Part shown: positions 1-59,473 of the stretch, in pieces | How positions within the stretch are numbered: position 1 is the stretch's first letter | Layout: each line of letters starts with the position of its first letter | Made by a program: the position numbers and the translations under genes | DNA from: Verrucomicrobiota bacterium | GTDB taxonomy: Bacteria > Verrucomicrobiota > Kiritimatiellia > CAJWTS01 | Assembly: GCA_027623315.1 (NCBI GenBank) | Contig: JAQBYD010000006.1 | Location: forward strand, 27,209 to 91,208 | Direction of reading: 5' to 3' | Length of the DNA: 64,000 bases | The notes under the pieces: model-generated | The model's database searches: none | What the model was told of the DNA's origin: nothing | What the model saw: the letters and a program-made list of their open reading frames with translations, nothing else

Positions 1-232
1 CGCCAAGCGGGCGACGCTCTCGAAGTGCTGCACGCTGAAGTCATCGTCGGCGACGACGATTCCGAATTCCTCTTCAAGACCGACGACCAACTCGAGAAGA
101 CTAACCGAGTCCACGTCGTAGTCTTCCACCAGCGACTTATCGGATTCCAGTTCTTCCGGCTGTATTCTCATGAAGAGGCGCTCTACGATCATGGCCTTGA
201 GGCGCGATTCTGTGTCGTCTGTCATGGATCCA
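1..232 (-). CDS. Acyl carrier protein, 5' part complete, 3' end cut by window edge
   Basis: My own translation of the minus strand from the ATG at 232-230: MTDDTESRLKAMIVERLFMRIQPEELESDKSLVEDYDVDSVSLLELVVGLEEEFGIVVADDDFSVQHFESVARLA. ACP size, acidic helix II and a DxDS(V)S phosphopantetheine-site-like motif. Not in the ORF track because it reaches the window edge. Confidence 0.75.
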
Positions 233-240
233 TTCTCCTT

Positions 241-1113
241 TCACACAATGGGCAGTTCGGTCACGCTGTCAAACGCCGGCGTGCAGATCTCGCGCCACTG
301 CGTCTCCTCATCGGGAGGTCCTTCTTCGTTCTCAAAGAGATGGCGCCAGCGCTGCTTGAACAGCATGCCGTGTTTGATGATCAGGTACGTATTCGGTAGA
401 GAATCCGTATTGGCCGTCGTGACGCTTTCAAAGTGATACATCTCCACGGTTGGGAGGTAGTGAGCCGTGTGGCCGCGCGAGCGCGCGCGATACACCAGAT
501 CAAAATCTTCGAACTCGACGGGATTGAAGGCCTCGTCGAACCCGCGGCACTCATCGAGCACGGCGCGTTTGAACATGACGCAGGCGCTGATCAGGCATTG
601 CACCTCTACGGTCTGGTTGAAGGCCGGGGCATCGCGGGCCTCGCCACGGCCGCGAAACTGCACGCGGCCGGACCTTGAGATGCCGACGCCGGCGCACTGG
701 ATGTGATGCGGTGGGTAGGGGTAGATTAGTTTGGGCCCGACCATGCCGCGCGCGGGTTCGGCGTCGAGCGCGTCCATCAAGTCCTGCAGCCAGGATCGCG
801 TGCACAGGGCCACGTCATTGTCGATGAACACGATGTGGGACCCATGCGCCCGTTCGATGCCCTGGTTGCGCGCGGTCGAGCAGCCGATGTTGGAGTCGTT
901 GTGGTGGACCGTCACCTTGACCCCGCTGGATTCCGCCCGGCTCGAGAACTCTTCGAGCCACTCCGACGTGCCATCGGTTGAACCATTGTCGATGATGATC
1001 ATTTCCCAGCTGGGATAATCCGTCTGCAGCAACGTCTGGAGGCAACGTGCAGTCACCTCCAGCTTGTTATGCGTCAGCGCGATGATGGAGATTAGAGGGG
1101 GCATAGCTATCAT
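241..1113 (-). CDS. Family 2 glycosyltransferase (GT-A)
   Basis: 290 aa. N-terminal IIALTHNKLEVTARCLQTLL...IIIDNGSTDGT and FIDNDV (DxD) are typical of GT2. Lies 8 nt upstream of the ACP gene on the same strand. Confidence 0.8.
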   Translation of the reverse strand: MIAMPPLISIIALTHNKLEVTARCLQTLLQTDYPSWEMIIIDNGSTDGTSEWLEEFSSRAESSGVKVTVHHNDSNIGCSTARNQGIERAHGSHIVFIDNDVALCTRSWLQDLMDALDAEPARGMVGPKLIYPYPPHHIQCAGVGISRSGRVQFRGRGEARDAPAFNQTVEVQCLISACVMFKRAVLDECRGFDEAFNPVEFEDFDLVYRARSRGHTAHYLPTVEMYHFESVTTANTDSLPNTYLIIKHGMLFKQRWRHLFENEEGPPDEETQWREICTPAFDSVTELPIV

Positions 1114-1143: not shown

Positions 1144-2121
1144 TTATCCTGTTAACTCCCTGGCGGCTCGAACGATGTCCGCGCGGCCCGGCAGCGCTGC
1201 ATCTTCGAGGATCGGGCTGGCCGGGATGGGAACGTCGGGTGTCGTGACGCGCTTGATCGGAGCGTCAAGGTAGTCGAATACGTCTTCGAAGATGCGGCAT
1301 CCGATCTCGGAGCTGACGCTGCAGACGCGCGGCGATTCGTCTGTGATGATTACGCGACCCGTCTTGCGCACAGACTCGGCGATCGTCTGCATGTCGAGCG
1401 GCTTGAGCGTTCGCAGGTCGAGAACTTCGGCCCGGATGCCGTCCTCCTCGAGTTGCGCAGCGGCGGCCTCGGCCTCGATGGCCCCACGGCCCCATCCGAT
1501 GATGGTGATGTCTTCACCCTCGACGGCGATCCGGGCCTTCCCGATGGGGATCGTCGTGCGTGACGTCTTGGGGACGGGCCCGCGTGTGGAGTAAAGCGAC
1601 TTCTGTTCGATGAAAATGACAGGGTTGTCGTCCCGGATCGCGGACTTCAGAAGGCCCTTGGCGTCGGCGGGGGTCGCGGGAGCGACCACCGTGAGTCCCG
1701 GCGTATGCATGAACCACGATTCGAACGTCTGGGAATGCGTCGGTCCGTAACGACGACCGCCACCGGCTGCGGCACGAATCACAATCGGGCATTTGGCCTG
1801 CGGACCGTACACGTACCTCAGTTTCGCGGCCTGGTTAACGATCGGATCCATCGCCAGGGGGATGAAGTCCATGAACATGATCTCAACCACCGGGCGCGAC
1901 CCCATCAGCGATGCGCCGACGGCGATTCCCACAAATCCTGCCTCGGAGATCGGGGTGTCGATAACGCGCTGCGGGCCGAAGGTGTCGAGCATGCCGCGCG
2001 TCACGCCGAAAGCCCCGCCATAGGGGCCGATGTCTTCGCCCATCACGAAGACGTTACCGTCGCGGCGTAGTTCCTCGGTCAAAGCCTCGCGCAGGGCATC
2101 GCTGTAGCTGATGGTTCTCAT
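1144..2121 (-). CDS. 2-oxoacid (pyruvate/acetoin/branched-chain) dehydrogenase E1 component, beta subunit
   Basis: 325 aa, transketolase-like fold. Motifs MGEDIG...GGAFGVTRG, IDTPISEAGFVG. Overlaps the E1-alpha stop by 4 nt. Confidence 0.85.
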   Translation of the reverse strand: MRTISYSDALREALTEELRRDGNVFVMGEDIGPYGGAFGVTRGMLDTFGPQRVIDTPISEAGFVGIAVGASLMGSRPVVEIMFMDFIPLAMDPIVNQAAKLRYVYGPQAKCPIVIRAAAGGGRRYGPTHSQTFESWFMHTPGLTVVAPATPADAKGLLKSAIRDDNPVIFIEQKSLYSTRGPVPKTSRTTIPIGKARIAVEGEDITIIGWGRGAIEAEAAAAQLEEDGIRAEVLDLRTLKPLDMQTIAESVRKTGRVIITDESPRVCSVSSEIGCRIFEDVFDYLDAPIKRVTTPDVPIPASPILEDAALPGRADIVRAARELTG

Positions 2122-3077
2122 ACGGTGACCCCATCGAGTAACGTGGCGGGGTCGGGGTCCGGGCTCTGCTTGGCGAATTTTACGGCGGCGCTGACGATGC
2201 GCCGCACGTTGGCCTTGATCTCCTGATCAACTTCCGACGACAGGATGCCTTCGCGGCGAAGGGTTTTGGCCAGTGCCGCGATGGGGTCACGGCGGGCCCA
2301 CGCCTGTTCTTCTTCACGGGAACGGTACTTTCGCGGGTCGCCGCGGGAATGCCCGGAACGTCGATACGTCTTGCATTCGATCAGGGTCGGGCCTTCGCCG
2401 TCGCGTGCGCGGCGACAAGCCTTGCGCGTAACGTCCAGCACCGCGCGGAGGTCGTTGCCGTCGACCGCCGTGCCGGGAATGCCATAGCTGTCCGCGCGCC
2501 GCGCGATGTCGGTGATCGCCATCGAGTCCTCCACGTTCATCGACATGGCGTAGCGGTTGTTCTCGCAGACGAAGAGGACCGGCACTTTCCAGATCGCTGC
2601 CATGTTCAACGACTCGTGAAAGCTGCCCTGGTTGGCTGCACCATCTCCGAAGAAACACACGACGAGCCCTTGCGTGCCCTTCTGCTTGAGGGAGAGGGCT
2701 GCGCCCGTGGCCAGCGCGATGCTGCCGCCGGTGATGCCGTTGGCACCGAGAAATCCAAGTTTGAAATCAGCCATGACCTGGCTGCCACCGCGTCCGCGGG
2801 AGTAACCGGTTTCCTTGCCGAACAATTCGGCCATGATGCGTGACGGATCGCCGCCGCAAGCGATGAAGTGCCCGTGACCCCGATGCGTGCTGGTCACGTA
2901 GTCTCCCTTTCGCAGAGAGTCGCATACACCCACGGCCGTGGCTTCCTGCCCGATCGCGGGATGCGCGGTTCCTGCGATCAGGCCTTTGCTAAAGAGCTCT
3001 TCGACGCGTTCTTCAAAGCGCCTGATCACCAGCATCGTTTGGTACTGTTTGAGACTTTTCTTCACATTAGGTGTCAC
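2118..3077 (-). CDS. 2-oxoacid dehydrogenase E1 component, alpha subunit (TPP-dependent)
   Basis: 319 aa. TPP-binding GDGAANQG...NN motif, HRGHGH and YRxxGHS motifs typical of PdhA/AcoA/BkdA. Confidence 0.85.
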   Translation of the reverse strand: MTPNVKKSLKQYQTMLVIRRFEERVEELFSKGLIAGTAHPAIGQEATAVGVCDSLRKGDYVTSTHRGHGHFIACGGDPSRIMAELFGKETGYSRGRGGSQVMADFKLGFLGANGITGGSIALATGAALSLKQKGTQGLVVCFFGDGAANQGSFHESLNMAAIWKVPVLFVCENNRYAMSMNVEDSMAITDIARRADSYGIPGTAVDGNDLRAVLDVTRKACRRARDGEGPTLIECKTYRRSGHSRGDPRKYRSREEEQAWARRDPIAALAKTLRREGILSSEVDQEIKANVRRIVSAAVKFAKQSPDPDPATLLDGVTV

Positions 3078-4266
3078 TTTTACACAGAGACAGGGTGGCG
3101 ACTGTACCGCCGGGATCGGCCGTCGTCACGAGCATGTTTTCCAACGGCGCCCCGCGTGTGGAGTCCGTAATCGGCGCAACCCTGGCCGCCGGGTCCGGGT
3201 TATCCGCATGGAGTGTAGCTGGAAGCACGCCTGATTCCATAATCAGGATTGCAGCGGCACTTTGAAGGGCCGAGGCGCATCCGCCCGTGTTGCCGAATAT
3301 CGGTACCAGGCTCGTGACCGGAATGGGGTTAGGCTGCTCGTCGAGGAATGCACCGATCCCGGCGCCCAACCAGAGGTCTTGCTCCACGCTTCCGTTGCCC
3401 CCGGCGCAGATCGCATGCGGCGTTCGCGTGGTCGCGGCGGCAAGGGAATGATGCACGGTCGCGGCATATCCGCTCGACTCGACGCCGGCGGCCAGCGAGG
3501 CGCCGGTGATCTCGCCGAGGATCGCGGCTCCGCGCGCGCGCGCGTGGTCGCGCGACTCCAGGACCAAGGTTACCGCGCCTTCGCCGAGCACCGTGCCGTT
3601 GCGGTGAGCCGAGAAGGGGGCGCAACACTCGTCTCCACCGTCGCCCGGCGACAGCTCTCCGAGTTCGCTAAGCCCTTCATAGGCCGCCAGGCTGAGAGCG
3701 TCGACGCCCCCCGCCAGGGCCAGGTCGCAGCGTCCGGTCCGGATCCGGTCGTATGCGTCGATGATGGCGCAGCCGGATGCCACGTTTCCCGACGCGTAGT
3801 TGGCATGGTAACCGCAAATGCCGAACTCTATGGCGATCAGGCTGATCGGCGTGTTGGAGTAGGTATGTGGGAAGAGAAACGGTTTCACCAGCCGGGGGCC
3901 CTTGGCCACAAGGTCCTCGAAGAACAGCGCCATGGTGTCCATGCATCCGAAAGCGGAACCGTAGAAGAGTGCCGCGTTCGCTACGTCCTCCCGGGACAGG
4001 CCCGCGTCGTCGAGGGCGAGTTGGGTGGCGCCCAGGGCAAACTGCGAGGCGCGGTCGAGATAGGTCTGACGCGTCTGCAGGATCTGCTCGAGATCGAAGT
4101 CGCGAATCTCCGCGGCGCGCCGCGTCGGCATGCCTTCGACGTCGAACAAGGTGATGTCGTGGATGCCCGATGTCGCGCTCTCGAGAGCCTGCCGCGTGGC
4201 CACGCGGCCCGTGCCGATCGCGGAGACGGGGCCGATTCCGGTGATGACGACGTCACGTGTGCTCAT
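3067..4266 (-). CDS. Beta-ketoacyl synthase-like protein, KS-beta/CLF-like partner with degenerate active site
   Basis: 399 aa, thiolase/KAS fold. Aligns to FabF but the position of the second catalytic His (KSMTGHLLG) reads FGNTGGCAS, and the Cys position is ambiguous (GNVASGCAII). Overlaps the downstream KS by 4 nt (ATGA). Confidence 0.65.
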   Translation of the reverse strand: MSTRDVVITGIGPVSAIGTGRVATRQALESATSGIHDITLFDVEGMPTRRAAEIRDFDLEQILQTRQTYLDRASQFALGATQLALDDAGLSREDVANAALFYGSAFGCMDTMALFFEDLVAKGPRLVKPFLFPHTYSNTPISLIAIEFGICGYHANYASGNVASGCAIIDAYDRIRTGRCDLALAGGVDALSLAAYEGLSELGELSPGDGGDECCAPFSAHRNGTVLGEGAVTLVLESRDHARARGAAILGEITGASLAAGVESSGYAATVHHSLAAATTRTPHAICAGGNGSVEQDLWLGAGIGAFLDEQPNPIPVTSLVPIFGNTGGCASALQSAAAILIMESGVLPATLHADNPDPAARVAPITDSTRGAPLENMLVTTADPGGTVATLSLCKSDT

Positions 4267-5465
4267 CGACTTCTGGCCTCACGAAGTACGAGCGCGGCAT
4301 TGGTCCCACCGATCCCGGCCGAATTGGAAAGCACGCAACGCGTGGTGTGCTCACGCGGTTGATCACGAACGAGATCGATGTCGCAAGCCGGATCCGGTTG
4401 ATCCGCGTTGAGGGTCGGCGGGATCAGGCCGCTACGGATAGTCATGATGGAGGCGATCGCCTCGGCACTTCCCGCGGCTCCCATCATGTGGCCCGTGGCG
4501 GACTTGTTGGCGGTGACGGGCAGGGACGAAGCGCGCGCACCGAAGACTTCATGAATTGCGGTCGATTCGGCGACGTCGTTATGGGGCGTCGCCGTTCCAT
4601 GCGCATTGACGTGGTCGATCGCGTCGGCTGCCATGCCGGCGTCCGCGAGTGCCATGCGCATGACGTCGGTCGTGCCTTTGCTATCCTTGGACGGTGCGGT
4701 GAGATGATAGGCGTTGTTGTTCAGCGCGTACCCGCTGAGTTCCGCGTATATCGGCGCGCCACGCTGGTGGGCATGGTCTTCGCTCTCCACGATCAGAACG
4801 CCGGCTCCTTCGCTGAAAATGGTGCCGTCTCGCCGGGCGTCGAACGGGCGCACCGCGTCGTGGGACATGGCGCGCAGGGCGCTCAGACCGCTCCACGCGA
4901 AACGGGAGAGCACGTCGTAGCCGCCGGTGAGAACCATCTCGGCCCGCCCGGCCCGAATCCAGTCGGCGGCCAGTCCCATCGCGGCTGTGCCGGAGCTACA
5001 CGAGAGCGACAGAACGCTGCGCGGGCCGGTGAAGCACCACGTGTTGGCGACGTGGTCGGCGCTGCGCAGAAAGCCGTACTCGCTGAAGTCCTCCAGGCCC
5101 GATGCTTCGCTGGACTCGCCGAGCAGATGCTCCGCCGAGGTGATGCCGCCGAAGTTGGAGGCGGCGATGACAGCGACCCTGGCGAGGTCGACGTTCGCGG
5201 TGGCGAGCTGCGCGTCGGCGACGGCCTCGTCTGCAGCGGTCAGTAGGAACTGTGTTGCCAGGTTCGCATGACGGCCCGCGGCCGCGATGTGGGCCGGAAG
5301 TTCAAAAGAGGAGATCTCGCCACCACGCGTAAAGGGAAACCCTTCAGTATCGAAGCGCGTGATCTCTCGAATTCCGCACTGCCCTTCGAGCAGGGCGGTC
5401 CAGAACGCATCGACGCCATTGCCGATCGGCGAGACGATTCCCATTCCGGTTACGACAACAGACAC
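4263..5465 (-). CDS. Beta-ketoacyl-ACP synthase II-like (KS-alpha) with complete Cys-His-His triad
   Basis: 400 aa. LSLSCSSGTAAM (Cys), HVNAHGTATPHND (His) and KSATGHMMGAAG (His) match the FabF/KAS II catalytic motifs. Confidence 0.85.
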   Translation of the reverse strand: MSVVVTGMGIVSPIGNGVDAFWTALLEGQCGIREITRFDTEGFPFTRGGEISSFELPAHIAAAGRHANLATQFLLTAADEAVADAQLATANVDLARVAVIAASNFGGITSAEHLLGESSEASGLEDFSEYGFLRSADHVANTWCFTGPRSVLSLSCSSGTAAMGLAADWIRAGRAEMVLTGGYDVLSRFAWSGLSALRAMSHDAVRPFDARRDGTIFSEGAGVLIVESEDHAHQRGAPIYAELSGYALNNNAYHLTAPSKDSKGTTDVMRMALADAGMAADAIDHVNAHGTATPHNDVAESTAIHEVFGARASSLPVTANKSATGHMMGAAGSAEAIASIMTIRSGLIPPTLNADQPDPACDIDLVRDQPREHTTRCVLSNSAGIGGTNAALVLREARSR

Positions 5466-5509: not shown

Positions 5510-6253
5510 TTACATCACCATGCCGCCATCGACCGACAAGACCTGGCCGGTAATGTAACCCGATCGATCCGAGGCGAGAAAGATCGCGGCCCGGGCGACA
5601 TCGTCGGGTTCGCCGAAGTGTCCGAGTGGTACTCGCTCGAGCAGGGCGGCGCGCTTAGCGTCGCTAAGCGCTTTGATCATATCGGTTTCGATCACCCCGG
5701 GAGCGATCGCATTCGCGGTAACGCCAGACGTCGCAAACTCGCGCGCGGCGGCCTTGGTCAGGCCGATCATGCCGGCCTTTGCTGCCACGTAGCTGGCGCG
5801 CATTGCGTCTCCCGTGATGCCCGCTGCAGAACTGATATTGATAATGCGGCCGTAGCGTGCGCGCATCATGTCCCGGCCGACGGCCTTGATGCAGGTAAAC
5901 GCGCCGCGAAGATTGATGTCCACCACGTCGTCCCACTCCTGGTCGCTCATAAACGTGATCGGCTTGTCGCGAAGGACGCCGGCGTTGTTCACGAGGATTC
6001 CGACAGGACCGAGTGCAGCTCGGACCTCGGCAACCATTTTCGCGACTGCCTCGGTGTCGCGCACATCGGTTCGGACGGCAACCGCGCTCCCACCCGCCTC
6101 GTCAATCTCGCGCACGGTGTCGGCCGCCGCGTCGGCATCGTTCACGTAGTTGATACCGACGGCTGCCCCGGCTCGGGCAAGTGCCATGGCTATGGCGCGG
6201 CCGATACCGCGTGATCCGCCGGTGACGAGCGCTGTCCGGCCCGCGAGGGTCAT
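5510..6253 (-). CDS. fabG: 3-oxoacyl-ACP reductase (SDR family, FabG-like)
   Basis: 247 aa. TGGSRGIGRAIA Rossmann motif, NNAG, S...YxxxK (SYVAAK) catalytic motif. Closest general match is FabG. Confidence 0.85.
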   Translation of the reverse strand: MTLAGRTALVTGGSRGIGRAIAMALARAGAAVGINYVNDADAAADTVREIDEAGGSAVAVRTDVRDTEAVAKMVAEVRAALGPVGILVNNAGVLRDKPITFMSDQEWDDVVDINLRGAFTCIKAVGRDMMRARYGRIINISSAAGITGDAMRASYVAAKAGMIGLTKAAAREFATSGVTANAIAPGVIETDMIKALSDAKRAALLERVPLGHFGEPDDVARAAIFLASDRSGYITGQVLSVDGGMVM

Positions 6254-6732
6254 GGCTTGGCCGCTGTGCGAACCATTTCTTCACTGACGATCTCGCTATC
6301 GCCGGCAGCCGCGACATCCGTGAGATCGATCCCGAGTTCGCGGGCGAGTCGTCGCGCTGCCGGCGTAGCGCGGACCCGCGCGCGTGGTCCGCTCGAGCGC
6401 TTTTTGGGTTGGGTCTTGCGCGATGTCTCGGCGCGCGCACGATGCTCTGTCATGAGCGTCTTGTTCTCCGGGTCGACATCGGGCAGTGGATCCGATGCGC
6501 TCCCGATGAGCGCAATCACGTAGTGCACGGGGACGTTGCTTTTCACAGGGGCAACGATTCTGCGAAGGGTCCCTGCCTTCGGCGATTCGAACTCGAAGGC
6601 GGTCTTGTCGGTAGTGACCTCGGCGATGGGTTCCTCTTTGCGGACCTTGTCGCCCTCGTTCTTCAGCCAGGCCGTTATCGTGGCCTCCTCGATATTAGCG
6701 CTTAGCTTGGGCATTCGTATCTTTGCGATCAT
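6250..6732 (-). CDS. Lipoyl-domain plus E3/E1-binding (PSBD) protein lacking the E2 acyltransferase catalytic domain
   Basis: 160 aa. N-terminal MPKLSANIEEATITAWLKNEGDKV...EVTTDKTAFEFESPKAGTL is a canonical lipoyl domain with the lipoyl-lysine in TDKT. An Ala/Pro-rich linker follows, then ATPAARRLARELGIDLTDV, a peripheral-subunit-binding domain. It stops there, with no CAT domain. Confidence 0.75.
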   Translation of the reverse strand: MIAKIRMPKLSANIEEATITAWLKNEGDKVRKEEPIAEVTTDKTAFEFESPKAGTLRRIVAPVKSNVPVHYVIALIGSASDPLPDVDPENKTLMTEHRARAETSRKTQPKKRSSGPRARVRATPAARRLARELGIDLTDVAAAGDSEIVSEEMVRTAAKP

Positions 6733-6764: not shown

Positions 6765-9700
6765 TCAGCCGCCCTGCTTGTCCGGCGCGGCCTTAATCGA
6801 CGCGGTCTCACTCGCGTCCGGACGGAGGCCGGGGACGGTGCCGCCCGGCAGCGGCAGACGAAACGGCGGCGAAGCGTTACCGGCCTTGTCACGCACCTCG
6901 ACGCTGATCCAGCTGCCTTTCGCGGGTGCAACCTGCGCCTGCGCCGGAGCAACGCTCAGCGAATCGGTTTCGTTCGCGACCCACCATCTGACGCCCGCCA
7001 CACCGCTCGCGTCATACGCGTCCAGGGTCACTTCGTCGGTCTCCTTCCATTCTCGCATCACGAAGAATGACTCGATGTCCAATGGGGAGATCTTATTCGT
7101 ACTGGCCTGGTGTAGAGATAGGCTGGTGATGGGCCGTTTGAGCAGGAGTTCGATCGGCTCCGCCTCGTCTTTTTCTTTAGCGGCGACGATGTTGTTCATC
7201 AATTCTTCGAACTCATCTTCTTCTGCCTGTGACTCGAGCAGCTTCTTCAGATCGACGATGACGGGTTGCCACTGCCCCGCCTTCCATGTGACGGGGTGAT
7301 CGAGTGCCAGGGCCCCTTTGCGCGGCGTCGGACCGGACAGGTGAACGGTGTAGTTGAGGTCCTTTCCCATCGTGAACGTCATCTCGATATTCGTCTCGTC
7401 GTCTTCTGCCACGGATGGCCTGCGCAGGCGCATCGCGATCAAGGGATGCTCCCCCGCTCGCCATATGTTGGGTTTGGCGAATGCCTGCGTCACCCACGCG
7501 TTGGTCATGGCTTCCGCGGCCGAGAAACGGGCGAAGGGGATCGGCCCATTGGTGCGAATGAGCGAGACGGTCGCGCCCTTGATGCCCGGTTCGAAAGTCG
7601 ATTTGAGAATCGCCGTGTTTTCGTACCCGGCGCTCCAGAGGATGTTGGAGGGATACGCGATCGAGAGAAGTGTTGGAGGCATCTTGTCTTTCGAGTAGTC
7701 GGAGGCAAACGGTACGCGCAGGTCCTCGACCGGGTTCCCTGCGCCGTCGCGAATATCGGAGAGAACCATCCAGTTGGTCACGCCATCCGTCGATGCTCGC
7801 AATGGTTGTCGGAAGCAGTAGGCCCAGGAGATCCCGAGCGTGTCCTTGTCCGGCGAATGGGCAAAGGTTGAACGCTCCAGGGGAAAGCTGAGAACGTCCT
7901 CGTTCCAACGCGCCTTCACGGTGGAGTAGTCCAGCGGAGCTCCAGAGCCCTGGAAGAAGTGAATCGCGATCTGGCCATCATTGGAGTAGGCCTTGCTGGC
8001 CTCGTCGAAGCGATAGTTACGACGCGGTGGCTCGCGATCCAGCAGGAATGGAATATCGGTAACCGACGACGATGTTCCCTTGGTGTCGGCCGCTCTAAAG
8101 AGGATGTGATGCCGGCCGTCTTCAAGACCGGCGAGGTCGGGGGTGGCCTGGTCGGCATTGGGAATTGCACGCCAGGGAAGGGCGGCGATGGCCGAGGCGT
8201 CGAGGTCCGCCGCCGGGGTCGCGCCGGGCAGAACGGCGATGGAGACCGAGGCGATCCCGTCAGGATCGGAGTAGTTCGGGGTCATGGCAAGTTGGGCGGC
8301 CTCGCGCACGGCTGGACCAAAGACGAGATCGTCGATCTCCCACCGGGTATAGAGTCCGGACTGGTCGACCGCGTGCTTGGAGCCGAAATTAACACTCGGC
8401 ATCAGGTAGTGCTCGTGATCGAACTTCGGATCCAGGGCGGCGCGACTGACGGGGCCGTGCCAGGTGTGCCACTGATCGTCGAGGGTCAGCGAGTCTCCTA
8501 CGACCTGACCGGTTTTGTCCTCGCTCAGGTGCACCACGTACGTGCCGAGCGCGAGAGATACGCGCCCCAGGCGCGGTGCGCGGTAACGAAACTGGAAGAT
8601 GGGAAACCGGGCCAGGTTGATCTTGCGGTTGATGCCGGCCGCCAGCCGGTGCGCGGCGCCAAAGTTGCGAACTCGCAACGCTCGTCCCTGCAGAGGGTCG
8701 TCGTGCTGGAGCGTGATTCGCGGGGGCGTTATGGCCAGACCTTGCGGTGGTGTGTCGGCTTCGAAGTTGATGAATAGCAACGACTCGTTGGCTAGTTCGG
8801 TCAACTCCGGGCGCTCGGGTAGGGGGCGTTCACTCCATTGGAGTTTGATTGCGTACGGACGCTGCCCCGCTTTGAATGTCCCTTCGAGAATGGGGGACTC
8901 TGCGTCCGTGAATGGCGAGCCTCGCGGGATTGTGGCCATGCGGCTGAACCCCGGCCCACGGACCAGCGGGACCGGAACTTTGGCGAGGGCCAACGTTCCC
9001 ATGATGAAACGCGGATCGGGATAATCCCCATCGTGTTGGATCAGGATGGTGCCCGTCCGATTGGTGGACCATGCGGCCGAAACGGCCAGCGACTCCGGCA
9101 GGTGAATCCACGCGATCGGGACGCGGTGCAGGCCGTTCGAGGACGCGTACTCCAAACGGTGATGTTGCAGGGCGGGATATGTCTGGGCCACGGTCCACGT
9201 GTTCAACTTCTCAAGCGTCTTGAACTCATGCGACGGCCCGCCCGCCTCGGGAGTGGTTTTGAACGGGGCGGTTGCGGTCCCGGACTTCGCGATCTCGAAC
9301 GCGGGCGGCACGTAGCGAACTTCGCGCAGGCCCTTGACGGCATAGGCGGCGCTGGGCCCGTTTCCGTGGAGGCCCTGCGCGACGAAGCTGGGTTGTAGAT
9401 TCCCGAATCCGGCGATTTGAACCACGAGGCCTGCGCGCTCGTCCTGACGAAGTTCAAGCTCTGGAAGCCAGACCTTGACGCGCTGCCAGTCTTCATTCTG
9501 GTGCCATCGGTCCCCGGACATGCTGACCGGGTCAACCGGCGAGCTGCCGGCCGCCGCGAACGTCTTGTCCGGGTTCTCCGATCCTGAGAGGTGGTGAAAG
9601 TACCGCCGCGCCACCACGAACCTGTTCGAAGGGGATAGCGTTCCGACGTCAAGATGGAAATTGAACTGGGCGCCGGGCGTGCGTTTGACGTCGAACTCCA

Positions 9701-12700
9701 GCCCGGCCAGATCCTTTAACGCTACGGGGGGAGCCTGACCAACCGCCGCCATGCTGCCGCCGCCCAGAGTGTTTCGTAACACGAAATACGGCTCACCATC
9801 GGCGGTCGTGTGCCAATCGAGCAGTGCTCTTCCCGCATCGGTCGTTGACGTCCAATACGCAGGCTGCATCAGGTCCGCGCTCGCGCCGCTGATGACCAGA
9901 CCGCCGTCGTCCCGTGTGAGTGTCTCCGCAACGGCCTCGGCCTTTTCGTCGAGCGAGACAGCGCGGAAGGATCGCGTTGCGGGGCGAATATCTTCAGCCG
10001 CAATCTTGACGCGCGCGATGACCATGGAATTGAGGTAGGTCCAGATCCCGAGCGACCCGGACTGGAGCGGTTCATGGTCGTCCACGGCGAAAACGAGCTC
10101 GTTATCGAAGTAGTACTCGAGGCGCTCACCGACGCGGCGAAGCTTCACGTAGTACCAGGCTCCGTGCACGGGGCGTCCGTCGGCGACCAGGGGGGTCAAA
10201 CCGTGCCGTGTGCTTCCTTCGCGAACGCGCGGCACGAGGTACTTGTCGGATTCGGTGAAGGTCTTCCCGTTGCGGTACAGCCGGGTATAGAGCTGCGAGT
10301 GATCGAAATCCCATCCGCTGCAGGTGACCGTGTATCCCTGGCTGGGGGCACCCGACGCACTGTGTACGGTCAGGTTCAGATCGCCGGGGCGCGCGTACCA
10401 GCCGTGGCGAGTCCCGGCGTACATCTCCACGCAAAAATCGCCGCTAAACTGGTACTTCGACCAGAGCGACGCGACGCCGTCTCGGGATTGCCCGTTCATG
10501 TGCGACCAACGCGGGTCGCACTGGAAGCGATTGACGATCTCCCACCGCCCACCGTTGACCGTCCAATCGTGGAGCGACTCCGTGAACAGGTAGTCTTTCA
10601 CCTGGTACCGCTCCGCCAGTGTATGCACCAGTTGCTGGACGGTGAACCCGGCGATGCGCACGCGCCGTCCCTCCAGGACGTGCGGCAGGGCGTGGGAGAT
10701 CAGGACGTTGTCGCCGCTGCTGATCCATGTCCAGTAGCCCTCGTGATGAATCGAGTAGAGCTTCACCTTCCCGTCCGGCGCGACCAGGTTTGTGGTCGTC
10801 GTATCAGCGACGACGCGGAACCCGCCGTCTTTCGGATCGCGCACCGCCAGGCGTATGGCGTCGGCATCAGCGATTATGCGAATGGCACCGTTCGTCTCAC
10901 CTTCTTTGACACCGAGATGTATTTCCGAGCCGTCAACCAGGGGCATTTGGAGTTTGAAGCGTCCGAAGAAGTCGCCCTTATGCCACATGGTCTTATTCGT
11001 ATGGGTGAACCATTCACCTTCGGGCGATGACCAGTGACGCATGAACTTGTCGTCCGCGAAAATGCGGTTCTTCTCATATTGGTTGTGGTGAAGGTCGTCC
11101 CGGTGAAAGTCGTATCGCACATCCCGGACCTGGGCGGCGCTATTGGGGCCGACGTAGATACCCGATGCGCCGCGCGGCTCCTCGGTGGGATGGTGGATCA
11201 GGACGAGGGTGTCGTTGTCGTACATGCGCATCTCTCGCGGATTGCCGGCGTCGATCATCAGGGAGCGCCACATGTCGCGGACGCGCGATTGCCCGCCGGG
11301 CTGCGTGAATTCCGTGATCACTTCGGGCTCCGAGTGGTTCACGCGCTCCAGCTTGTAGACAACGCGGTCCGGTTCCTGGCGGCGCGTGAAGCGGTAGTAG
11401 GGCTTGTCCGCAGCCGTATACCCCGCAAGAAGCCCGATATGGCTCTCGGCTTGATGGGGCTGGAAGTGAGCCGAGAAGATATGCGCGGCGTCGGCCGGCG
11501 AACCGACGACGATCCATTGCTCGGAGCTGCTGGACCCGACCTTCAGCGCGTCCCACTCGCGCCGCGGGATAAATAGCCCGGATAAGGGCCCGCGTGGAAA
11601 GATGCGCCCCTCTTCGGCGATGGTGTGGTAGCGCAGTTCGTGGATGTCGCCGAGGTCCAGGCCGTGATTGCTCGCGGCGTCAACATCGTCGAAGCGAGTT
11701 CCGGCGTCACCGTGGGCATACAGTCCCAGCAGCCCGCCGTCGGGTAACTCGTGCCGAATATCGAAGACCTTGACGTTGTCCAGGTAGCACTCGATGCGGT
11801 TGAAGTAGGTCTTCACGCCTAGCTTTACCCATTGCTCACGGCCGACATCGGTGTCGGCCACCGCCAACACGGTGGGGGTTCCTTCGTCGTCGGGAGAGGC
11901 CTTCTTCAGCCGCAGCCGGCTTTCGCCTCCGCCGCGAAGGGGTTCGGCCGTGAATGCAAAGTAGTCGTTCGAGCCACGATGCAGGAACACCAGCCCGGCC
12001 TCGATGGGCATAATTTGCATGGATGCTTCGTAGGTGAAGGCGTCGTAGAAGGTGTGGCCGGTCGTGATCACGGCGTTGGTTCCGGACCCGTGCAGGCTGT
12101 AGAAGTTCGGGCTGTGCTCCGCCTTGAGGCCCGTTCCCCCCTCCAGTTTGTCCTGCACCGTGATGTGATCGAGGACGGTGTGAAGTCGCCACGTACCCGA
12201 CTCGATCTCCCATGCGTCGAGCTGATTCTCGTCGCCCTCGGGGACCAGGAAGTCGTCGTGAAAGACAAAGTCTTCGATTTTCTGGTACCGCGCGTCGGTC
12301 TCTCCCGATGTCGGGAACTGGTCGGCAGGCATCGAGAGGCTGCCGGGTGGGACGAAAGGAGATGGAAACGCCGCGACCGGCCGGCCCTGCAGATAGATGG
12401 CCCACATTTCGTTGCGGATCTTCAGAACCACCTCTGCGTCCTCGATCGATTCCGTCGGCAGAGCGTTCAGATGAAAGCGACTTCCGGCTTGCAGGGCGCG
12501 GGGGAAAGCGGATGCCGGGACGGGGGTTATGGTCCCGCGAGTTCGCTCAAGTCGCACGAGAATGGCGGCTTCTCGATCACCCTGCGCGATTCGCAGGCTC
12601 AGCCCGGCGTCCGGGTTCCACCGTGCCCGGAAAGAAAGGTTTCCGGTGGGAGTGTCGAATCCCAGCACGTCCGTAGATTCCGCATCGGCATAGGCCAACT

Positions 12701-12761
12701 GTGCCGCTGCCATCAGCAGCACGAAACCCCTTGTCAAAATAGAGAATTTGGATCGTCCCAT
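6765..12761 (-). CDS. Giant secreted protein (~1998 aa) with repeated concanavalin-A-like lectin/LamG/DUF1080-like beta-sandwich segments
   Basis: The track ORF runs 6765..13463, but its first 234 aa are low-complexity read-through. A convincing start is the ATG at 12761-12759, giving MGRSKFSILTRGFVLLMAAAQLAYA, a signal peptide. Internal segments such as DWTVNGGRWEI...GDFCVEMYAG...SGSLGIWTYLNSMVIARVKI resemble DUF1080/LamG folds. The domain call rests on motif resemblance only. Confidence 0.6.
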   Translation of the reverse strand: MGRSKFSILTRGFVLLMAAAQLAYADAESTDVLGFDTPTGNLSFRARWNPDAGLSLRIAQGDREAAILVRLERTRGTITPVPASAFPRALQAGSRFHLNALPTESIEDAEVVLKIRNEMWAIYLQGRPVAAFPSPFVPPGSLSMPADQFPTSGETDARYQKIEDFVFHDDFLVPEGDENQLDAWEIESGTWRLHTVLDHITVQDKLEGGTGLKAEHSPNFYSLHGSGTNAVITTGHTFYDAFTYEASMQIMPIEAGLVFLHRGSNDYFAFTAEPLRGGGESRLRLKKASPDDEGTPTVLAVADTDVGREQWVKLGVKTYFNRIECYLDNVKVFDIRHELPDGGLLGLYAHGDAGTRFDDVDAASNHGLDLGDIHELRYHTIAEEGRIFPRGPLSGLFIPRREWDALKVGSSSSEQWIVVGSPADAAHIFSAHFQPHQAESHIGLLAGYTAADKPYYRFTRRQEPDRVVYKLERVNHSEPEVITEFTQPGGQSRVRDMWRSLMIDAGNPREMRMYDNDTLVLIHHPTEEPRGASGIYVGPNSAAQVRDVRYDFHRDDLHHNQYEKNRIFADDKFMRHWSSPEGEWFTHTNKTMWHKGDFFGRFKLQMPLVDGSEIHLGVKEGETNGAIRIIADADAIRLAVRDPKDGGFRVVADTTTTNLVAPDGKVKLYSIHHEGYWTWISSGDNVLISHALPHVLEGRRVRIAGFTVQQLVHTLAERYQVKDYLFTESLHDWTVNGGRWEIVNRFQCDPRWSHMNGQSRDGVASLWSKYQFSGDFCVEMYAGTRHGWYARPGDLNLTVHSASGAPSQGYTVTCSGWDFDHSQLYTRLYRNGKTFTESDKYLVPRVREGSTRHGLTPLVADGRPVHGAWYYVKLRRVGERLEYYFDNELVFAVDDHEPLQSGSLGIWTYLNSMVIARVKIAAEDIRPATRSFRAVSLDEKAEAVAETLTRDDGGLVISGASADLMQPAYWTSTTDAGRALLDWHTTADGEPYFVLRNTLGGGSMAAVGQAPPVALKDLAGLEFDVKRTPGAQFNFHLDVGTLSPSNRFVVARRYFHHLSGSENPDKTFAAAGSSPVDPVSMSGDRWHQNEDWQRVKVWLPELELRQDERAGLVVQIAGFGNLQPSFVAQGLHGNGPSAAYAVKGLREVRYVPPAFEIAKSGTATAPFKTTPEAGGPSHEFKTLEKLNTWTVAQTYPALQHHRLEYASSNGLHRVPIAWIHLPESLAVSAAWSTNRTGTILIQHDGDYPDPRFIMGTLALAKVPVPLVRGPGFSRMATIPRGSPFTDAESPILEGTFKAGQRPYAIKLQWSERPLPERPELTELANESLLFINFEADTPPQGLAITPPRITLQHDDPLQGRALRVRNFGAAHRLAAGINRKINLARFPIFQFRYRAPRLGRVSLALGTYVVHLSEDKTGQVVGDSLTLDDQWHTWHGPVSRAALDPKFDHEHYLMPSVNFGSKHAVDQSGLYTRWEIDDLVFGPAVREAAQLAMTPNYSDPDGIASVSIAVLPGATPAADLDASAIAALPWRAIPNADQATPDLAGLEDGRHHILFRAADTKGTSSSVTDIPFLLDREPPRRNYRFDEASKAYSNDGQIAIHFFQGSGAPLDYSTVKARWNEDVLSFPLERSTFAHSPDKDTLGISWAYCFRQPLRASTDGVTNWMVLSDIRDGAGNPVEDLRVPFASDYSKDKMPPTLLSIAYPSNILWSAGYENTAILKSTFEPGIKGATVSLIRTNGPIPFARFSAAEAMTNAWVTQAFAKPNIWRAGEHPLIAMRLRRPSVAEDDETNIEMTFTMGKDLNYTVHLSGPTPRKGALALDHPVTWKAGQWQPVIVDLKKLLESQAEEDEFEELMNNIVAAKEKDEAEPIELLLKRPITSLSLHQASTNKISPLDIESFFVMREWKETDEVTLDAYDASGVAGVRWWVANETDSLSVAPAQAQVAPAKGSWISVEVRDKAGNASPPFRLPLPGGTVPGLRPDASETASIKAAPDKQGG

Positions 12762-13104: not shown

Positions 13105-13482
13105 ATGTACCGTATAGAGGCCGCCGTAGTGCCGCTCAAGGTGAGAATCGTGAAGCAGATTCTCGAGCAAGAGTATGATGAGGCGGCGGTGCGTGCTGCC
13201 AGCGAGGAGATTGCAGACCAGATCCAGACGGCTGCTTTGACGCTCTCGACGGCCGTCGGTGAGGTGCGAGACGTCCTCACGGACGAACAGATCGCCAAGC
13301 TGGAGACGATGAAGAAGAAAGCGATCGCCCGGCACGAGCAGCGCTTGGGCGCCATGGTCGAGATCATCGATACGTTGAAGGATGGATCCCGCTCCGTTAC
13401 GATGCAGCATTGGGCCGGCGTGGAACGCATCCGCGTCCGGCCTGTCTGCTGGAATGAATGCATCCGAGGATATCACCGATGA
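13105..13482 (+). CDS. Small LTXXQ-motif (Spy/CpxP-like) protein, no obvious signal peptide
   Basis: In frame with track ORF 13024..13482. ATG at 13105 gives MYRIEAAVVPLKVRIVKQ...LTDEQIAKLETMKKK. The start is uncertain and the ORF overlaps the sigma-factor start by 29 nt. Confidence 0.4.
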   Translation: MYRIEAAVVPLKVRIVKQILEQEYDEAAVRAASEEIADQIQTAALTLSTAVGEVRDVLTDEQIAKLETMKKKAIARHEQRLGAMVEIIDTLKDGSRSVTMQHWAGVERIRVRPVCWNECIRGYHR

Positions 13483-14041
13483 CTGGGCTGTCATTCAGCG
13501 CGTGCGGGATGGTGACGTCGATTCGTTCGAGGAGCTTGTGACCGCCTACCAGGAACTCGTGTTCGGAATCGTGGCCCGGCGCGTTGCCGGCCCGGACGTG
13601 GAGAGCGTGGCGCAGGACATCTTCGTCTCCGCGTTTCAATCGTTAAAGGCCTATCATCCACGTGAACCTTTTCGCCGATGGCTCAGCACGATCGCGGTCC
13701 GTCGTTGCGTTGATCACTGGCGCAAGAAGGGTCGGATCCGGGAGATGACGGGGTCCGAGTTGAGCCCGGCGCAGTCCGATTGGCTCGAGCAGGCGGCTTC
13801 GTCGCTTTCACGCGACGAGTTCGAGAAGGCCCTGGTGCACGAAGAGGCGGCGGAAGTACTTGACCTCGCGCTACGCAGGATGGATCCTGAAGGGAGAGCG
13901 CTGATCGAACTGGTTTACTTCGAGGATCAACCGATGAAGGACGTGGCACGCTTCCTGGATATCAGCGTCTCGAACGCGAAGGTTAGATCTCATCGCGCGC
14001 GCCAGAAGTTGCGCAAGATTGTCGAGGACATGCTATCGTGA
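13454..14041 (+). CDS. ECF-type RNA polymerase sigma-70 factor (sigma-24 family)
   Basis: Start revised to ATG 13454 (MNASEDITDDWAVIQRVRDGDVDSFEELV...). Region 2 (YxxLVFGIVARRV, DIFVSAF) and region 4 (YFEDQPMKDVARFLDISVSNAKVRSHRARQKLR, an HTH) are recognisable. Confidence 0.85.
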   Translation: MNASEDITDDWAVIQRVRDGDVDSFEELVTAYQELVFGIVARRVAGPDVESVAQDIFVSAFQSLKAYHPREPFRRWLSTIAVRRCVDHWRKKGRIREMTGSELSPAQSDWLEQAASSLSRDEFEKALVHEEAAEVLDLALRRMDPEGRALIELVYFEDQPMKDVARFLDISVSNAKVRSHRARQKLRKIVEDMLS

Positions 14042-14713: not shown

Positions 14714-15152
14714 CGGTTATTGGTTGTTGGTGTGTCGCCTTGAAATGGGTTGTCCCCCTATGCCGGGGCGAGAACTATCTGATACGATGGCATACGAGCA
14801 AGAGCTTACTGAACTGGAAGAACACGTGGCTACGGCAAAGAGTTTCGTGGCCAAGCTGCCGAAGAAATAGCGTGCAACGCTTTGGAGTGCGGCGACCCGG
14901 CGCCGCTCTGGCACGGCTCGCGTGGATCGCGCCGGAGGAAATACACGCCATCGCTTAGGCATGACGCTGAAGCGTTCGTGGTGGCACCCGCGCAATACGC
15001 AGAGCGGCGCCAGGTCGCCGCACTCCAGGGAGTCGCTGGCGCGGCTCGCACTTGATCCGACGCCACCCGGACCCATTCCACGACCGGCTGCCGATTGTAA
15101 TATCCCGCCGACCCCGACTTCTTTACGATGTCCACAATCAAAGGAGGTTGAA

Positions 15153-15707
15153 ATGACGAAGTGCCCGGTCTGCAAGAGACAAGGAATGACTAGAGTGGCG
15201 ACTGGTGATGGACTGTCCGTGCTCGCGTGCGATGCGTGTGGCGGCCAGTGGCTGTCGCGCAAAGATTACGAAGCGTGGCTCTCCGCCCACGGGGAGACCT
15301 TGCCGGAGAAGGCGTACTCCGAGGTGAAATTCGATATCGAGGACGTCCACGATGCAAAGGTCTGTCCAGACTGTTCGCGCTTTCTCCTGAAGTATCGCGT
15401 GGGTCACGGCCTGGACTTCTATGTGGACCACTGCGGGTCGTGCGGCGGTGTTTGGCTCGACAAGCATGAGTGGAACGCGCTGAAGGATAAGAATCTTCAT
15501 GACGAGATTCATCGCGTATTCTCGACGCACTGGCAGGCCGACGTGCGGAAGGAGCAGATGAGCGACTGTCTTGACAGCGTATACCGTTCCCGCTTTGGCG
15601 AGAAGGACTACGAGATGGCCCGCCAGGTACGTAGCTGGATTCAGGCGAGCGAAGATCGTGACGCACTCATCCGGTTTCTGGCGGATGACGATCCGTACGC
15701 GGTCTAG
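15153..15707 (+). CDS. Tandem zinc-ribbon (zf-TFIIB-like) domain protein
   Basis: Start revised to ATG 15153, preceded by AAAGGAGG 8 nt upstream. Two repeats of CPxC...CxxCGGxWL (CPVCK..CDACGGQWL and CPDCS..CGSCGGVWLD). Confidence 0.7.
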   Translation: MTKCPVCKRQGMTRVATGDGLSVLACDACGGQWLSRKDYEAWLSAHGETLPEKAYSEVKFDIEDVHDAKVCPDCSRFLLKYRVGHGLDFYVDHCGSCGGVWLDKHEWNALKDKNLHDEIHRVFSTHWQADVRKEQMSDCLDSVYRSRFGEKDYEMARQVRSWIQASEDRDALIRFLADDDPYAV

Positions 15708-18945: not shown

Positions 18946-19143
18946 CTTGAGAATCGACTGGGCGATGGTGCTGGAACGGACACCGAATGGCAAGGCGGGA
19001 TGAAGCGGTTACTCCGGGGAGAGTTACGGTTTTCGCGGGCAGAATCGTATCGGCCCGGGCTCCCTGATTCACAGACTGATGGCACGAGTCCTGCTCTTCA
19101 TCTATAGTAGAGGTGCTCTGGGGTCACCGCTGCGGGTTTGGGT

Positions 19144-58180: not shown

Positions 58181-59473
58181 TTAAAGGAGGTCTTCGGGCT
58201 TTCGTCCAGCTTTTAATATAATCTCAAGTGAGGCTAAAAAAATAAGTTGATTGGACAAATCAGCATGATTGTTCTGGTGTGTATTCCATATTTCATCCAA
58301 GTCCAACCAGTTGACAATGTTTCGTTTTTTCAAATCATTCAAATTCTCTCTCATTGAATCTCTGAGATCTTTCCTGCTTTGTATGGAGGTTTTGAAATCC
58401 AGATAGTTCAGCATCCTATTTCGAACAGCATTCGGCCTTTTTGACGGAAATTTTTTACGCAATATGTTGCCGGCATGTGCGCAGGCATAAGGCAGTTTGC
58501 CTGTCTTTAGTCCCAGGCCATAATGAGATTTAAGCGGGATGCGGCTCATTTCCGGAAAATATTCCAGAATCATACCTTTATACAGACTGCAATTTTTGCG
58601 ATGCACCCTGGGCAGGTTAGTGAAAAATGCCAGCACCTCGGGGTCTGAAAATGGCGTTTCAAAGCATAGTCCTTTATGTAGAACACTCGGCGCTATCAAC
58701 TTCGCCTGTCGGTTTGAAAAATCCCAGCATTCTTCAATTGAGAAAGTGGTACCTGTTGCATTATCCGGATAGTCGAGAAGTGAGACATACTGCTTATGCG
58801 CTAGTACGTCTAGGCGCAGATTGCTTGTTTTACGTCCCTCTTTTTCGAGAAAACGGTAAGCCGCCAGCGGCTTTGTTGGTGCTGGTGAATGAGGCATGCG
58901 TGACCCGGCGAGATAGTCACCAAGGAAACCAGACCAGACCCGAGTGTTACCATAGCGTTCAACAAGTTTTGTTACCGGAGCTCCATGATATACCTCTGTC
59001 TGTAAATCGAAAGCTTTGGCTTTTAGAACAAGAGACTCCGTATCGTAAGGGCATTCATGTAGCGATAACGGATTGTGTTCCACCCCGTAAAACCTAGCGA
59101 CCTGGGCGCCAATTTCAAAATCAAAAGATCCCGGAAGCCCATACGTGAAGGTTGTGACCTTCGCGGCGGGCACCTGCTCCATTAAAAGAGCAAGAATAAG
59201 CCTACTGTCTAATCCACCACTCAGCGGAACCGCCTGGATCTTATCGGTGTCCAGTCGTTTGTCGATGGAGTTGCGTATAAGATGAATAGCCGTCTGCTTG
59301 AGTTCCTGCGTCGTCGCATGCTGTATATCTGACCTTGGTCCATAAAAAGTTCTGAGCGCAGGCGGGCTGCAGTAATTCAGAAAATAGCCAAGCCGAAGGT
59401 AGGCGTTCAGGGAAAGACTGTTTTTGAAATCATCGGCCTGAACCGCTGGACTACCCCCATCCCATGTATTCAT
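58181..59473 (-). CDS. Asparagine synthetase-like amidotransferase (AsnB C-terminal synthetase domain only, no glutaminase domain)
   Basis: 430 aa. PP-loop SGGLDSRLILALL as in AsnB/WbpS-type enzymes. No N-terminal Cys glutaminase domain. Confidence 0.65.
   Translation of the reverse strand: MNTWDGGSPAVQADDFKNSLSLNAYLRLGYFLNYCSPPALRTFYGPRSDIQHATTQELKQTAIHLIRNSIDKRLDTDKIQAVPLSGGLDSRLILALLMEQVPAAKVTTFTYGLPGSFDFEIGAQVARFYGVEHNPLSLHECPYDTESLVLKAKAFDLQTEVYHGAPVTKLVERYGNTRVWSGFLGDYLAGSRMPHSPAPTKPLAAYRFLEKEGRKTSNLRLDVLAHKQYVSLLDYPDNATGTTFSIEECWDFSNRQAKLIAPSVLHKGLCFETPFSDPEVLAFFTNLPRVHRKNCSLYKGMILEYFPEMSRIPLKSHYGLGLKTGKLPYACAHAGNILRKKFPSKRPNAVRNRMLNYLDFKTSIQSRKDLRDSMRENLNDLKKRNIVNWLDLDEIWNTHQNNHADLSNQLIFLASLEIILKAGRKPEDLL

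Follow-up and report, generated by a model that had tools for sequence, protein, structure and literature searches.

A short lipoyl carrier protein without an E2 core, encoded beside ketosynthase genes in a Verrucomicrobiota bacterium

What might a lipoyl arm do in a protein that has no E2 core? The question is raised by a short minus-strand gene in contig JAQBYD010000006.1 of a Verrucomicrobiota bacterium (assembly GCA_027623315.1), of which a stretch of 64,000 nucleotides, referred to as the window, was analysed. The product, here called Lip-PSBD, consists of a lipoyl domain followed by a peripheral-subunit-binding domain (PSBD). The lipoyl arm of 2-oxoacid dehydrogenases has, to our knowledge, always been thought to be part of a core-forming, acyl-CoA-making E2, and textbooks place lipoyl proteins in just a few complexes. 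Lip-PSBD is a free-standing, carrier-only, E2-derived protein, and we put at about 0.5 the probability that it is a dedicated swinging-arm acyl carrier, made from the E2 of a pyruvate dehydrogenase (PDH)-type complex minus the acyltransferase/core domain, which feeds a ketosynthase (KS) and acyl carrier protein (ACP) line without an E2 core. What is new is the family of core-less, E2-derived carriers and its KS-linked gene cassette, which suggest an undescribed feed of acyl groups from 2-oxoacids into a fatty-acid- or polyketide-like pathway.

The carrier protein and its missing catalytic domain

A sequence-only reading of the window had described a free-standing lipoyl plus PSBD open reading frame (ORF) at 6250-6732, of about 160 amino acids, and translation returned these coordinates and this length exactly. 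Pfam placed Biotin_lipoyl at residues 4-76 (E = 6.9e-16) and E3_binding at residues 120-144 (E = 2.6e-9, above the cut-off, with positions 1-25 of the 36 in the model covered). The lipoyl lysine, correctly assigned beforehand to a TDKT motif, is K43, within VTTDKTAF (codon 6604-6606), and was invariant in an alignment of 35 family members. An AlphaFold2 model built with a 35-sequence alignment as input (mean pLDDT, the predicted local distance difference test, of 89) comprised a beta-barrel at residues 1-77, a confident helix at 87-106 (mean pLDDT 95-92 over its 10-residue blocks), a low-confidence linker at 107-120 and a three-helix PSBD at 124-158, with helices at 124-133, 137-144 and 151-158. 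The PSBD helix reads ATPAARRLARELGIDL, and residues 124-137 read PAARRLARELGIDL. The helix at 87-106 stands where ordinary E2s have a flexible Ala/Pro-rich linker and, going by the model, may be a docking element for some partner. The barrel superposed on human PDH L2 lipoyl domains with a root-mean-square deviation of ~1 A in Foldseek, the closest PDB sequences found with phmmer were PDH E2 chains and protein X, and all the sequence and fold matches were E2-type lipoyl or biotinyl domains. No model in NCBIfam release 20 was found whose cut-off the protein passes.

Lip-PSBD is not an E2 enzyme. The protein ends at residue 160, with no C-terminal, core-forming 2-oxoacid_dh domain, and a tblastn search with nine diverse E2 catalytic (CAT) domains detected no CAT remnant in any frame of the window, the best match (E = 0.054) lying inside a glycosyltransferase gene at ~50.3-50.5 kb. 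Likewise, no 2-oxoacid_dh domain and no E3 were found among the large window ORFs tested with Pfam and NCBIfam. A frameshifted or remnant CAT domain in the fabG region was ruled out, since the tblastn search was blank there and the region from 6253 to 5510 is filled by an intact, full-length short-chain dehydrogenase/reductase (SDR), in agreement with the previous claim that no CAT domain follows downstream in any frame. The overlap of the two genes was also seen as described: the TGA stop of lip (6252..6250) overlaps the fabG ATG (6253..6251) as ATGA, read as 'tcat' at 6250-6253 of the plus strand.

A protein search retrieved 169 relatives (clusters at 90% identity) from Verrucomicrobia, Kiritimatiellia and other metagenomic sources; the best 120 all measured 155-193 aa, contained both Pfam domains and were 45-91% identical, and in total more than 120 clusters of this length share the architecture. 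Where these relatives had been named, they were called 'E3 binding domain-containing protein' or, wrongly, E2. A profile search of 1.84 billion representatives (50% identity) gave 454 matches at E <= 1e-30, and about 80 of the top 150 were short single-stretch proteins, the remainder being multi-lipoyl E2s. Besides K43, the 35-member alignment revealed as invariant the RATPAARRLA stretch and a DPLPDVxxxN motif just after the lipoyl domain (P84, V86 and N90), and all 35 proteins stop 5-20 residues past the last PSBD helix. By sequence, the short carrier of 155-193 aa is thus a new family of the PVC group (Planctomycetes, Verrucomicrobia and Chlamydiae), Armatimonadota and Planctomycetota, recognizable by its lipoyl domain, DPLPDVxxxN helix, RATPAARRLA PSBD and an end soon after PSBD helix 2. 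No description of the family or of its cassette was found in the full-text literature, nor a curated family. Every related locus with a short Lip-PSBD gene comes from metagenome-assembled genomes or metagenomes.

Such conservation bears on the possibility that the gene is an artefact, that is, an E2 gene truncated by sequencing, frameshifted or decaying. Only its unusual shortness speaks for this. The same sequence was found on independent ENA, JGI and NCBI assemblies (100% identity to an independent JGI contig over 16.7 kb and 99.99% to an ENA contig), the relatives have a like length and stop position, the downstream FabG is intact and no frame holds a CAT remnant. An artefact is hence refuted; a sequencing-truncated E2 had been named in the sequence-only reading as a finding that would overturn its description.

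The PSBD assignment stood in part. The domain is present, as judged from the E3_binding match and the three modelled helices, but the canonical GTGxxGRI loop is not conserved in the 35 aligned members; of the PSBD arginines, those of helix 1 are conserved, that of the loop is not. In canonical PSBDs the third basic residue serves E3 or E1 binding, and this residue is not conserved in the short family. An adaptor that recruits E3 (or E1) to a complex, in the manner of the eukaryotic E3-binding protein (E3BP, or protein X), had been proposed previously, and it shares with Lip-PSBD the order of lipoyl domain and then PSBD, with PDB matches to protein X at 5e-10 (1zy8_K) and 1.1e-9 (6h60_A). The inner core-forming domain of E3BP is nevertheless absent in all the 35 aligned members, the loop carrying the third E3-binding Arg is not conserved, and no E2 core or E3 is encoded in cis, so that the E3BP logic fails and this role is highly improbable.

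The ketosynthase-linked cassette

The genes that follow lip are all on the minus strand and mostly overlapping or closely spaced (Table 1). ATGA overlaps occur at lip/fabG, KS1/KS2 and E1 alpha/E1 beta, and KS2 and E1 alpha overlap by 11 nt if the latter starts at 3077 (an alternative start, 3035, is called on the public contig); judging from the ATGA overlaps, the cassette genes are translationally coupled. No minus-strand terminator-like sites were detected between cassette genes, including the gap between lip and the upstream giant-protein gene, which ends 32 nt from the lip start.

KS1 has an intact Cys156/His289/His326 triad; it scored 381 bits with the fabF model, under the equivalog cut-off, and its nearest PDB entries were FabF proteins. 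A residue-by-residue alignment of KS2 to Bacillus subtilis FabF (4ls6) placed Asn at the position of the active-site Cys and neither His was retained, which marks KS2 as a catalytically inactive, chain-length factor (CLF)-like protein. With the Cys-His-His triad in KS1 and none of these three residues in KS2, the two resemble KS/CLF pairs. In sequence terms, the neighbours of lip comprise the components of the KS-CLF systems of type II polyketide synthases (PKS) or fatty-acid synthases (FAS), namely an active KS, an inactive paralogue, a discrete ACP and a ketoreductase (KR). The cassette encodes the KR and neither a dehydratase nor an enoyl reductase. The ACP gene, cut by the window edge, is complete on an identical contig (our labels L090/L089); its product has a PP-binding domain and its closest NCBIfam model is an AmcB-type ACP (67 bits). 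For a further KS heterodimer, PDB entry 9s5h, no paper was found in the literature.

The catalytic motifs of the E1 subunits are intact. The nearest solved structure to E1 alpha was human PDH E1 alpha (226 bits, compared with 167 for the Thermus branched-chain 2-oxoacid dehydrogenase), and the subunit keeps the thiamine diphosphate (ThDP) motif GDG...NN and YRRSGHS (YRxxGHS). E1 beta keeps the PISE Glu and the THSQ His relative to human E1 beta, so both chains retain the His residues that act in lipoyl acylation (alpha YRRSGHS, beta THSQ). Having an E1 with intact catalytic motifs in the same operon, together with a retained PSBD, argues against Lip-PSBD being a dithiol/disulfide redox or sulfur shuttle, like the GcvH-type LbpA, that serves another cassette enzyme. 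The fold and sequence are also E2-type and not GcvH-type, no GCV_H Pfam match was found in the protein, and Pfam revealed no Hdr-like redox partner nearby among the window ORFs. Short Lip-PSBD genes do occur away from E1 genes as well, and atypical roles are known for some free-standing lipoate-binding proteins, such as LbpA in sulfur oxidation (PMC6067878); even so, we give the shuttle very little credence.

A scan of species-representative genomes yielded 80 loci, which were compared in a census by ORF calling and BLAST; the ORF boundaries in it are mechanical, and several 'long' lip ORFs are upstream extensions. The suggestion that short lipoyl proteins be sought beside KS genes elsewhere proved fruitful, given that about 27 of the 80 species-level loci have a short Lip-PSBD gene and then fabG, with KS, KS2, E1 alpha and E1 beta next where the flank allows. 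The order is fixed: giant protein, Lip-PSBD, FabG, KS, KS2, E1 alpha, E1 beta, family-2 glycosyltransferase (GT2), ACP, two alpha/beta hydrolases and family-4 glycosyltransferases (GT4s). It was the same in divergent members of 47-54% identity, according to look-ups of the encoding contigs, and the cassette was found in Verrucomicrobiota, Kiritimatiellia, Lentisphaerae/Victivallales and others. At ~22 species loci the giant-protein gene precedes lip, often with an overlap, and the GT2-ACP-hydrolase module lies downstream in most cassette loci with enough flank. Another ~27 of the 80 loci encode canonical E2s of 400-490 aa, preceded by E1 alpha and E1 beta.

Three loci are described on their own account. 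In L040, a long co-directional cluster considered as a fuller version with an acyltransferase, only unrelated aminotransferase, URO-D and phosphate transporter insertions were found. In an Acidobacteriaceae locus (L085, 4723-9221), the genes for E1 alpha and E1 beta are followed by that of a short Lip-PSBD whose GTGPGGRI loop is canonical, and then by a transketolase split into N and C halves; this may be another kind of CAT-less lipoyl system. The short Lip-PSBD gene of Ca. Thermosaccharophagus has a gene of the lipoate-protein ligase family 2 kb away.

Beyond the window, the identical contig continues with the rest of the ACP, two alpha/beta hydrolases, ABH1 and ABH2 (L090, 16770-18427), and then two GT4s. 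Both hydrolases are similar, with scores below the cut-offs, to the uncharacterised families TIGR03101 and TIGR03100 ('exosortase A system-associated hydrolase 2/1'); in ABH1 an invariant Arg occupies the nucleophile position (GLRLGA), and ABH2 has an invariant Gly-x-Cys-Ser-Gly nucleophile elbow (GICSG) and an invariant His. Both are fused in a single 571-aa protein in one relative (L092). Although both hydrolases and one GT4 resemble XrtA-associated families, a PEP-CTERM/exosortase link was rejected as resemblance only, since the giant protein has no PEP-CTERM tail and no exosortase/XrtA marker was present among the window ORFs tested.

These neighbours also allow the cassette to be weighed as a catabolic, Aco-type unit that cleaves acetoin or a diketone, in which E1, Lip-PSBD and an SDR acting as acetoin/butanediol-type dehydrogenase would work together and the KS genes would be mere neighbours. 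Among NCBIfam models, AcoC (NF011457) matches Lip-PSBD best, over part of its length and with 86 bits, and lip-fabG is the most constant pair, the KS genes being sometimes not detected (L031, L039 and L041). The SDR, however, passes a FabG subfamily cut-off, at most loci KS and KS2 separate the SDR from E1 within one translationally coupled operon, E1 alpha is closest to PDH E1 alpha, and the ACP, GT2, GT4 and secreted protein point to biosynthesis. A catabolic unit is accordingly very unlikely.

Table 1. Positions in the window of the lip gene, its domains and the neighbouring genes
Feature	Coordinates	Strand	Length	Evidence
Giant secreted protein	6765..12761	minus	1998 aa	Signal peptide; faint 3keto-disac_hyd/DUF1080 and DUF6250 lectin-like matches
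Lip-PSBD gene	6250..6732	minus	160 aa	Translation; Pfam Biotin_lipoyl and E3_binding
Lipoyl domain of Lip-PSBD	6502..6732	minus	aa 1-77	Pfam; invariant K43; Foldseek
Family-specific helix of Lip-PSBD	6415..6474	minus	aa 87-106	DPLPDVxxxN motif just before; AlphaFold2 helix
Divergent PSBD of Lip-PSBD	6259..6375	minus	aa 120-158	Pfam; AlphaFold2 helices
FabG-type 3-oxoacyl-ACP reductase	5510..6253	minus		adh_short_C2 3.8e-65; NF009466 265 bits (cut-off 222)
KS1, FabF-like ketosynthase	4263..5465	minus		Pfam ketoacyl-synt N and C domains
KS2, predicted inactive KS partner, CLF-like	3067..4266	minus		Weak Ketoacyl-synt_C match; alignment to FabF
E1 alpha, PDH type, ThDP-binding	2118..3077	minus		E1_dh 8.4e-89; TIGR03182 377 bits (cut-off 394)
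E1 beta, PDH type	1144..2121	minus		Transket_pyr and Transketolase_C; NF006667 399 bits (cut-off 321)
GT2, soluble family-2 glycosyltransferase	241..1113	minus		Glycos_transf_2 5.5e-26
ACP, acyl carrier protein	1..225	minus	75 of 85 aa (cut by the window edge)	DSV phosphopantetheine-site motif

No PDB sequence relative was found for the giant upstream protein. Genes for an extracytoplasmic function (ECF) sigma factor (13382-14041) and a zinc-ribbon protein (14922-15707), both on the plus strand, are divergent from the giant-protein/cassette operon and are possible regulators of it. A 2655-aa ORF lies at 19138-27105 (plus strand). A large surface-polysaccharide locus occupies positions 35000-64000 of the window. 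GT2/GT4 genes are numerous in it, and it also encodes an ABC exporter (56318-58099), a DltB-like MBOAT (60492-62042), a GDSL lipase and four members of the sulfotransferase family, besides a gene that resembles asparagine synthase and looks truncated (58181-59473).

A possible route for the acyl group

The fixed partners of Lip-PSBD, namely the KS/inactive-KS pair, FabG, a PDH-type E1 alpha/beta and usually an ACP, make a swinging arm that feeds a KS or ACP the best fit to the synteny. In the proposed sequence of steps, Lys43 would be lipoylated by the LplA/LipB-LipA machinery of the cell, and the divergent PSBD, as its domain identity suggests, would dock Lip-PSBD on the co-encoded heterotetrameric E1 alpha/beta; tethering of a PSBD to E1 beta is found in Gram-positive-type PDH. 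E1, its catalytic motifs being intact, would decarboxylate a 2-oxoacid and reductively acylate the lipoyl group, and because it is PDH-like, pyruvate or a close analogue is the most likely substrate. From the S-acyl-dihydrolipoyl arm the acyl group would then pass to the KS/inactive-KS heterodimer with neither CoA nor an E2 core; it is the gene neighbourhood that points to this transfer and to the KS or ACP as its recipient. The KS would condense the acyl group with malonyl-ACP, and FabG would reduce the product to a short 3-hydroxyacyl-ACP, the end point expected because a KR is encoded but no dehydratase or enoyl reductase. The dihydrolipoyl group would be re-oxidised by a housekeeping E3, none being encoded nearby.

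Two off-loading routes can be envisaged. The acyl group might be exchanged as a thioester directly onto Cys156 of KS1, KS enzymes being known to accept simple thioesters such as N-acetylcysteamine (SNAC) esters, or the Cys-nucleophile hydrolase ABH2 might relay it to the dedicated ACP, which would parallel the AcoC type. The specific form of the first route, in which S-acyl-dihydrolipoyl-Lys43 docks at the KS/inactive-KS heterodimer and acylates Cys156, so that a lipoyl to KS to ACP relay replaces both CoA and the E2 core, is offered as a tentative and rather doubtful proposal. More speculatively, the hydrolase-fold proteins and the GT2/GT4 enzymes might use the 3-hydroxyacyl unit to build or decorate a glycoconjugate, possibly tied to the giant secreted protein.

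The same proteins could also be read as a carrier that works with a canonical E2 core (and E3) encoded in trans, the cassette then being a local supply of acetyl-CoA or acyl-CoA for an ordinary KS/ACP pathway. The lipoyl domain and PSBD are indeed closest to those of PDH E2, no acyltransferase is demonstrable among the core six genes, and lipoyl domains can be shared between complexes, as in Corynebacterium, where OdhA uses the lipoyl domains of AceF. Several observations run against this arrangement: the nine-query tblastn found no CAT domain within +/-10 kb of the ~27 cassette-bearing loci, as it had found none in the window; the strict operon linkage is to KS/KS2 and not to any CoA-using enzyme; and an E2 core makes poor use of a free lipoyl domain that is not tethered to it. 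We regard a partner core in trans as unlikely.

Several points weigh against the swinging-arm carrier itself. Its functional steps, from lipoylation and E1 binding to acyl transfer, are drawn from homology and gene neighbourhood, and the genome may encode a canonical E2 or E3 elsewhere. A PSBD without the GTGxxGRI loop could have a partner other than E1 or E3. The short gene stands without the cassette at ~25 of the 80 loci: in Fimbriimonadaceae/Armatimonadota (L022, L030, L036 and L037, ~8000-10500; L091, 7253-8017) lip is translationally coupled to an upstream GT4 gene, which reaches or overlaps its start, and KS/E1 neighbours are absent, and the short Lip-PSBD loci of Planctomycetota have no constant neighbour. 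Since the family also occurs outside the cassette, the KS line is not its sole possible partner and the set of partners may be broader. Some cassette loci are without the GT2-ACP-hydrolase module, and the profile search returned no fusion of Lip-PSBD to a KS, ACP or hydrolase, its longer top matches being ordinary E2s or fragments. The likeness of ABH2 to the hydrolase part of AcoC is weak (hmmscan E = 1e-4; 28% identity in BLASTP) and typical of the superfamily, so that ABH2 is only a candidate for a split-off AcoC hydrolase domain.

If the swinging-arm carrier is nonetheless the right description, a widespread and conserved E2 derivative reduced to arm and docking domain, and hard-wired to a KS pair, a ketoreductase and an ACP, implies a fate of the acyl-dihydrolipoyl group that is independent of an E2 core, and the same linkage implies that 2-oxoacid carbon enters a condensing-enzyme pathway without CoA. 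Direct KS acylation, if true, would couple 2-oxoacid decarboxylation to Claisen condensation by a relay of protein-bound thioesters, an undescribed mode of FAS/PKS priming and a new role for lipoyl proteins. The GT2/GT4 enzymes, the hydrolases and the giant secreted protein suggest, speculatively, that the product is a glycoconjugate or glycolipid decorated with 3-hydroxyacyl groups. With its six to ten genes the system is compact; it occurs in PVC-group bacteria that have been little studied, and may offer enzyme engineers a means of priming KS enzymes from keto acids.

Comparison with known systems

The E2p of PDH complexes with an alpha2beta2 E1 (Geobacillus stearothermophilus 3duf_I and human 6ct0) shares with Lip-PSBD an N-terminal lipoyl domain with a DK-type lysine, a linker, a PSBD with the PAARRLA helix and co-encoded E1 alpha/beta. 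Having no 2-oxoacid_dh domain, Lip-PSBD, unlike E2p, can neither assemble into a 24- or 60-mer core nor produce acyl-CoA; it also lacks the GTGxxGRI loop and has a structured helix in place of the Ala/Pro linker, and its gene lies upstream of E1, with FabG, KS and KS2 between, and not downstream of E1. With E3BP, Lip-PSBD has in common a lipoyl domain, a PSBD and no acyltransferase activity, but the analogy fails because the inner domain that integrates E3BP into the core is wholly absent.

The AcoC type (NF011457, with lipoyl domain, PSBD and alpha/beta-hydrolase; for example, Paraburkholderia L060) provided the best NCBIfam match for the N-terminal part, covering profile positions 2-125 of 372 with 85.6 bits against a cut-off of 307, without the fused hydrolase. 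It demonstrates that an alpha/beta-hydrolase fold can take the place of CAT, and the cassette has alpha/beta hydrolases a few genes downstream; these, in contrast to AcoC, are separate proteins of the TIGR03100/03101 type, one with Cys and the other with Arg at the nucleophile position. The alphaproteobacterial PdhB (NF008854), to which the N-terminal 124 residues match with E = 6.6e-17, likewise carries a lipoyl domain off the E2 core. In PdhB the lipoyl domain is fused to E1 beta, without a PSBD, and a normal E2 is also present.

A precedent for passage from a lipoyl arm to an ACP comes from QncN/QncL/QncM (NapB/D), which makes glycolicacyl-ACP for nonribosomal peptides: a ThDP enzyme loads the lipoyl arm and the unit ends on an ACP (PMC6335953). 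As proposed for Lip-PSBD, the acyl unit on the arm is bound for a dedicated ACP and not for CoA, whereas in QncL/SclQ4 the lipoyl domain is followed by a catalytic acyltransferase domain, the ThDP part resembles a transketolase and no KS/CLF pair takes part (PMC6335953).

The KS/CLF heterodimers of actinorhodin (1tqy), ishigamide (6kxd) and cispentacin (AmcF/AmcG) share with the cassette an active KS with an inactive paralogue, a discrete ACP and a FabG-type KR, and differ from it at the Cys position of the inactive partner, which is Gln in type II PKS CLFs and Asn in KS2. We know of no such KS/CLF system that is primed from a lipoyl protein or co-encoded with E1 alpha/beta. By analogy, Lip-PSBD is most like the lipoyl-PSBD didomain of PDH E2, and its cassette is most like a KS/CLF type II system that would be primed from a ThDP enzyme.

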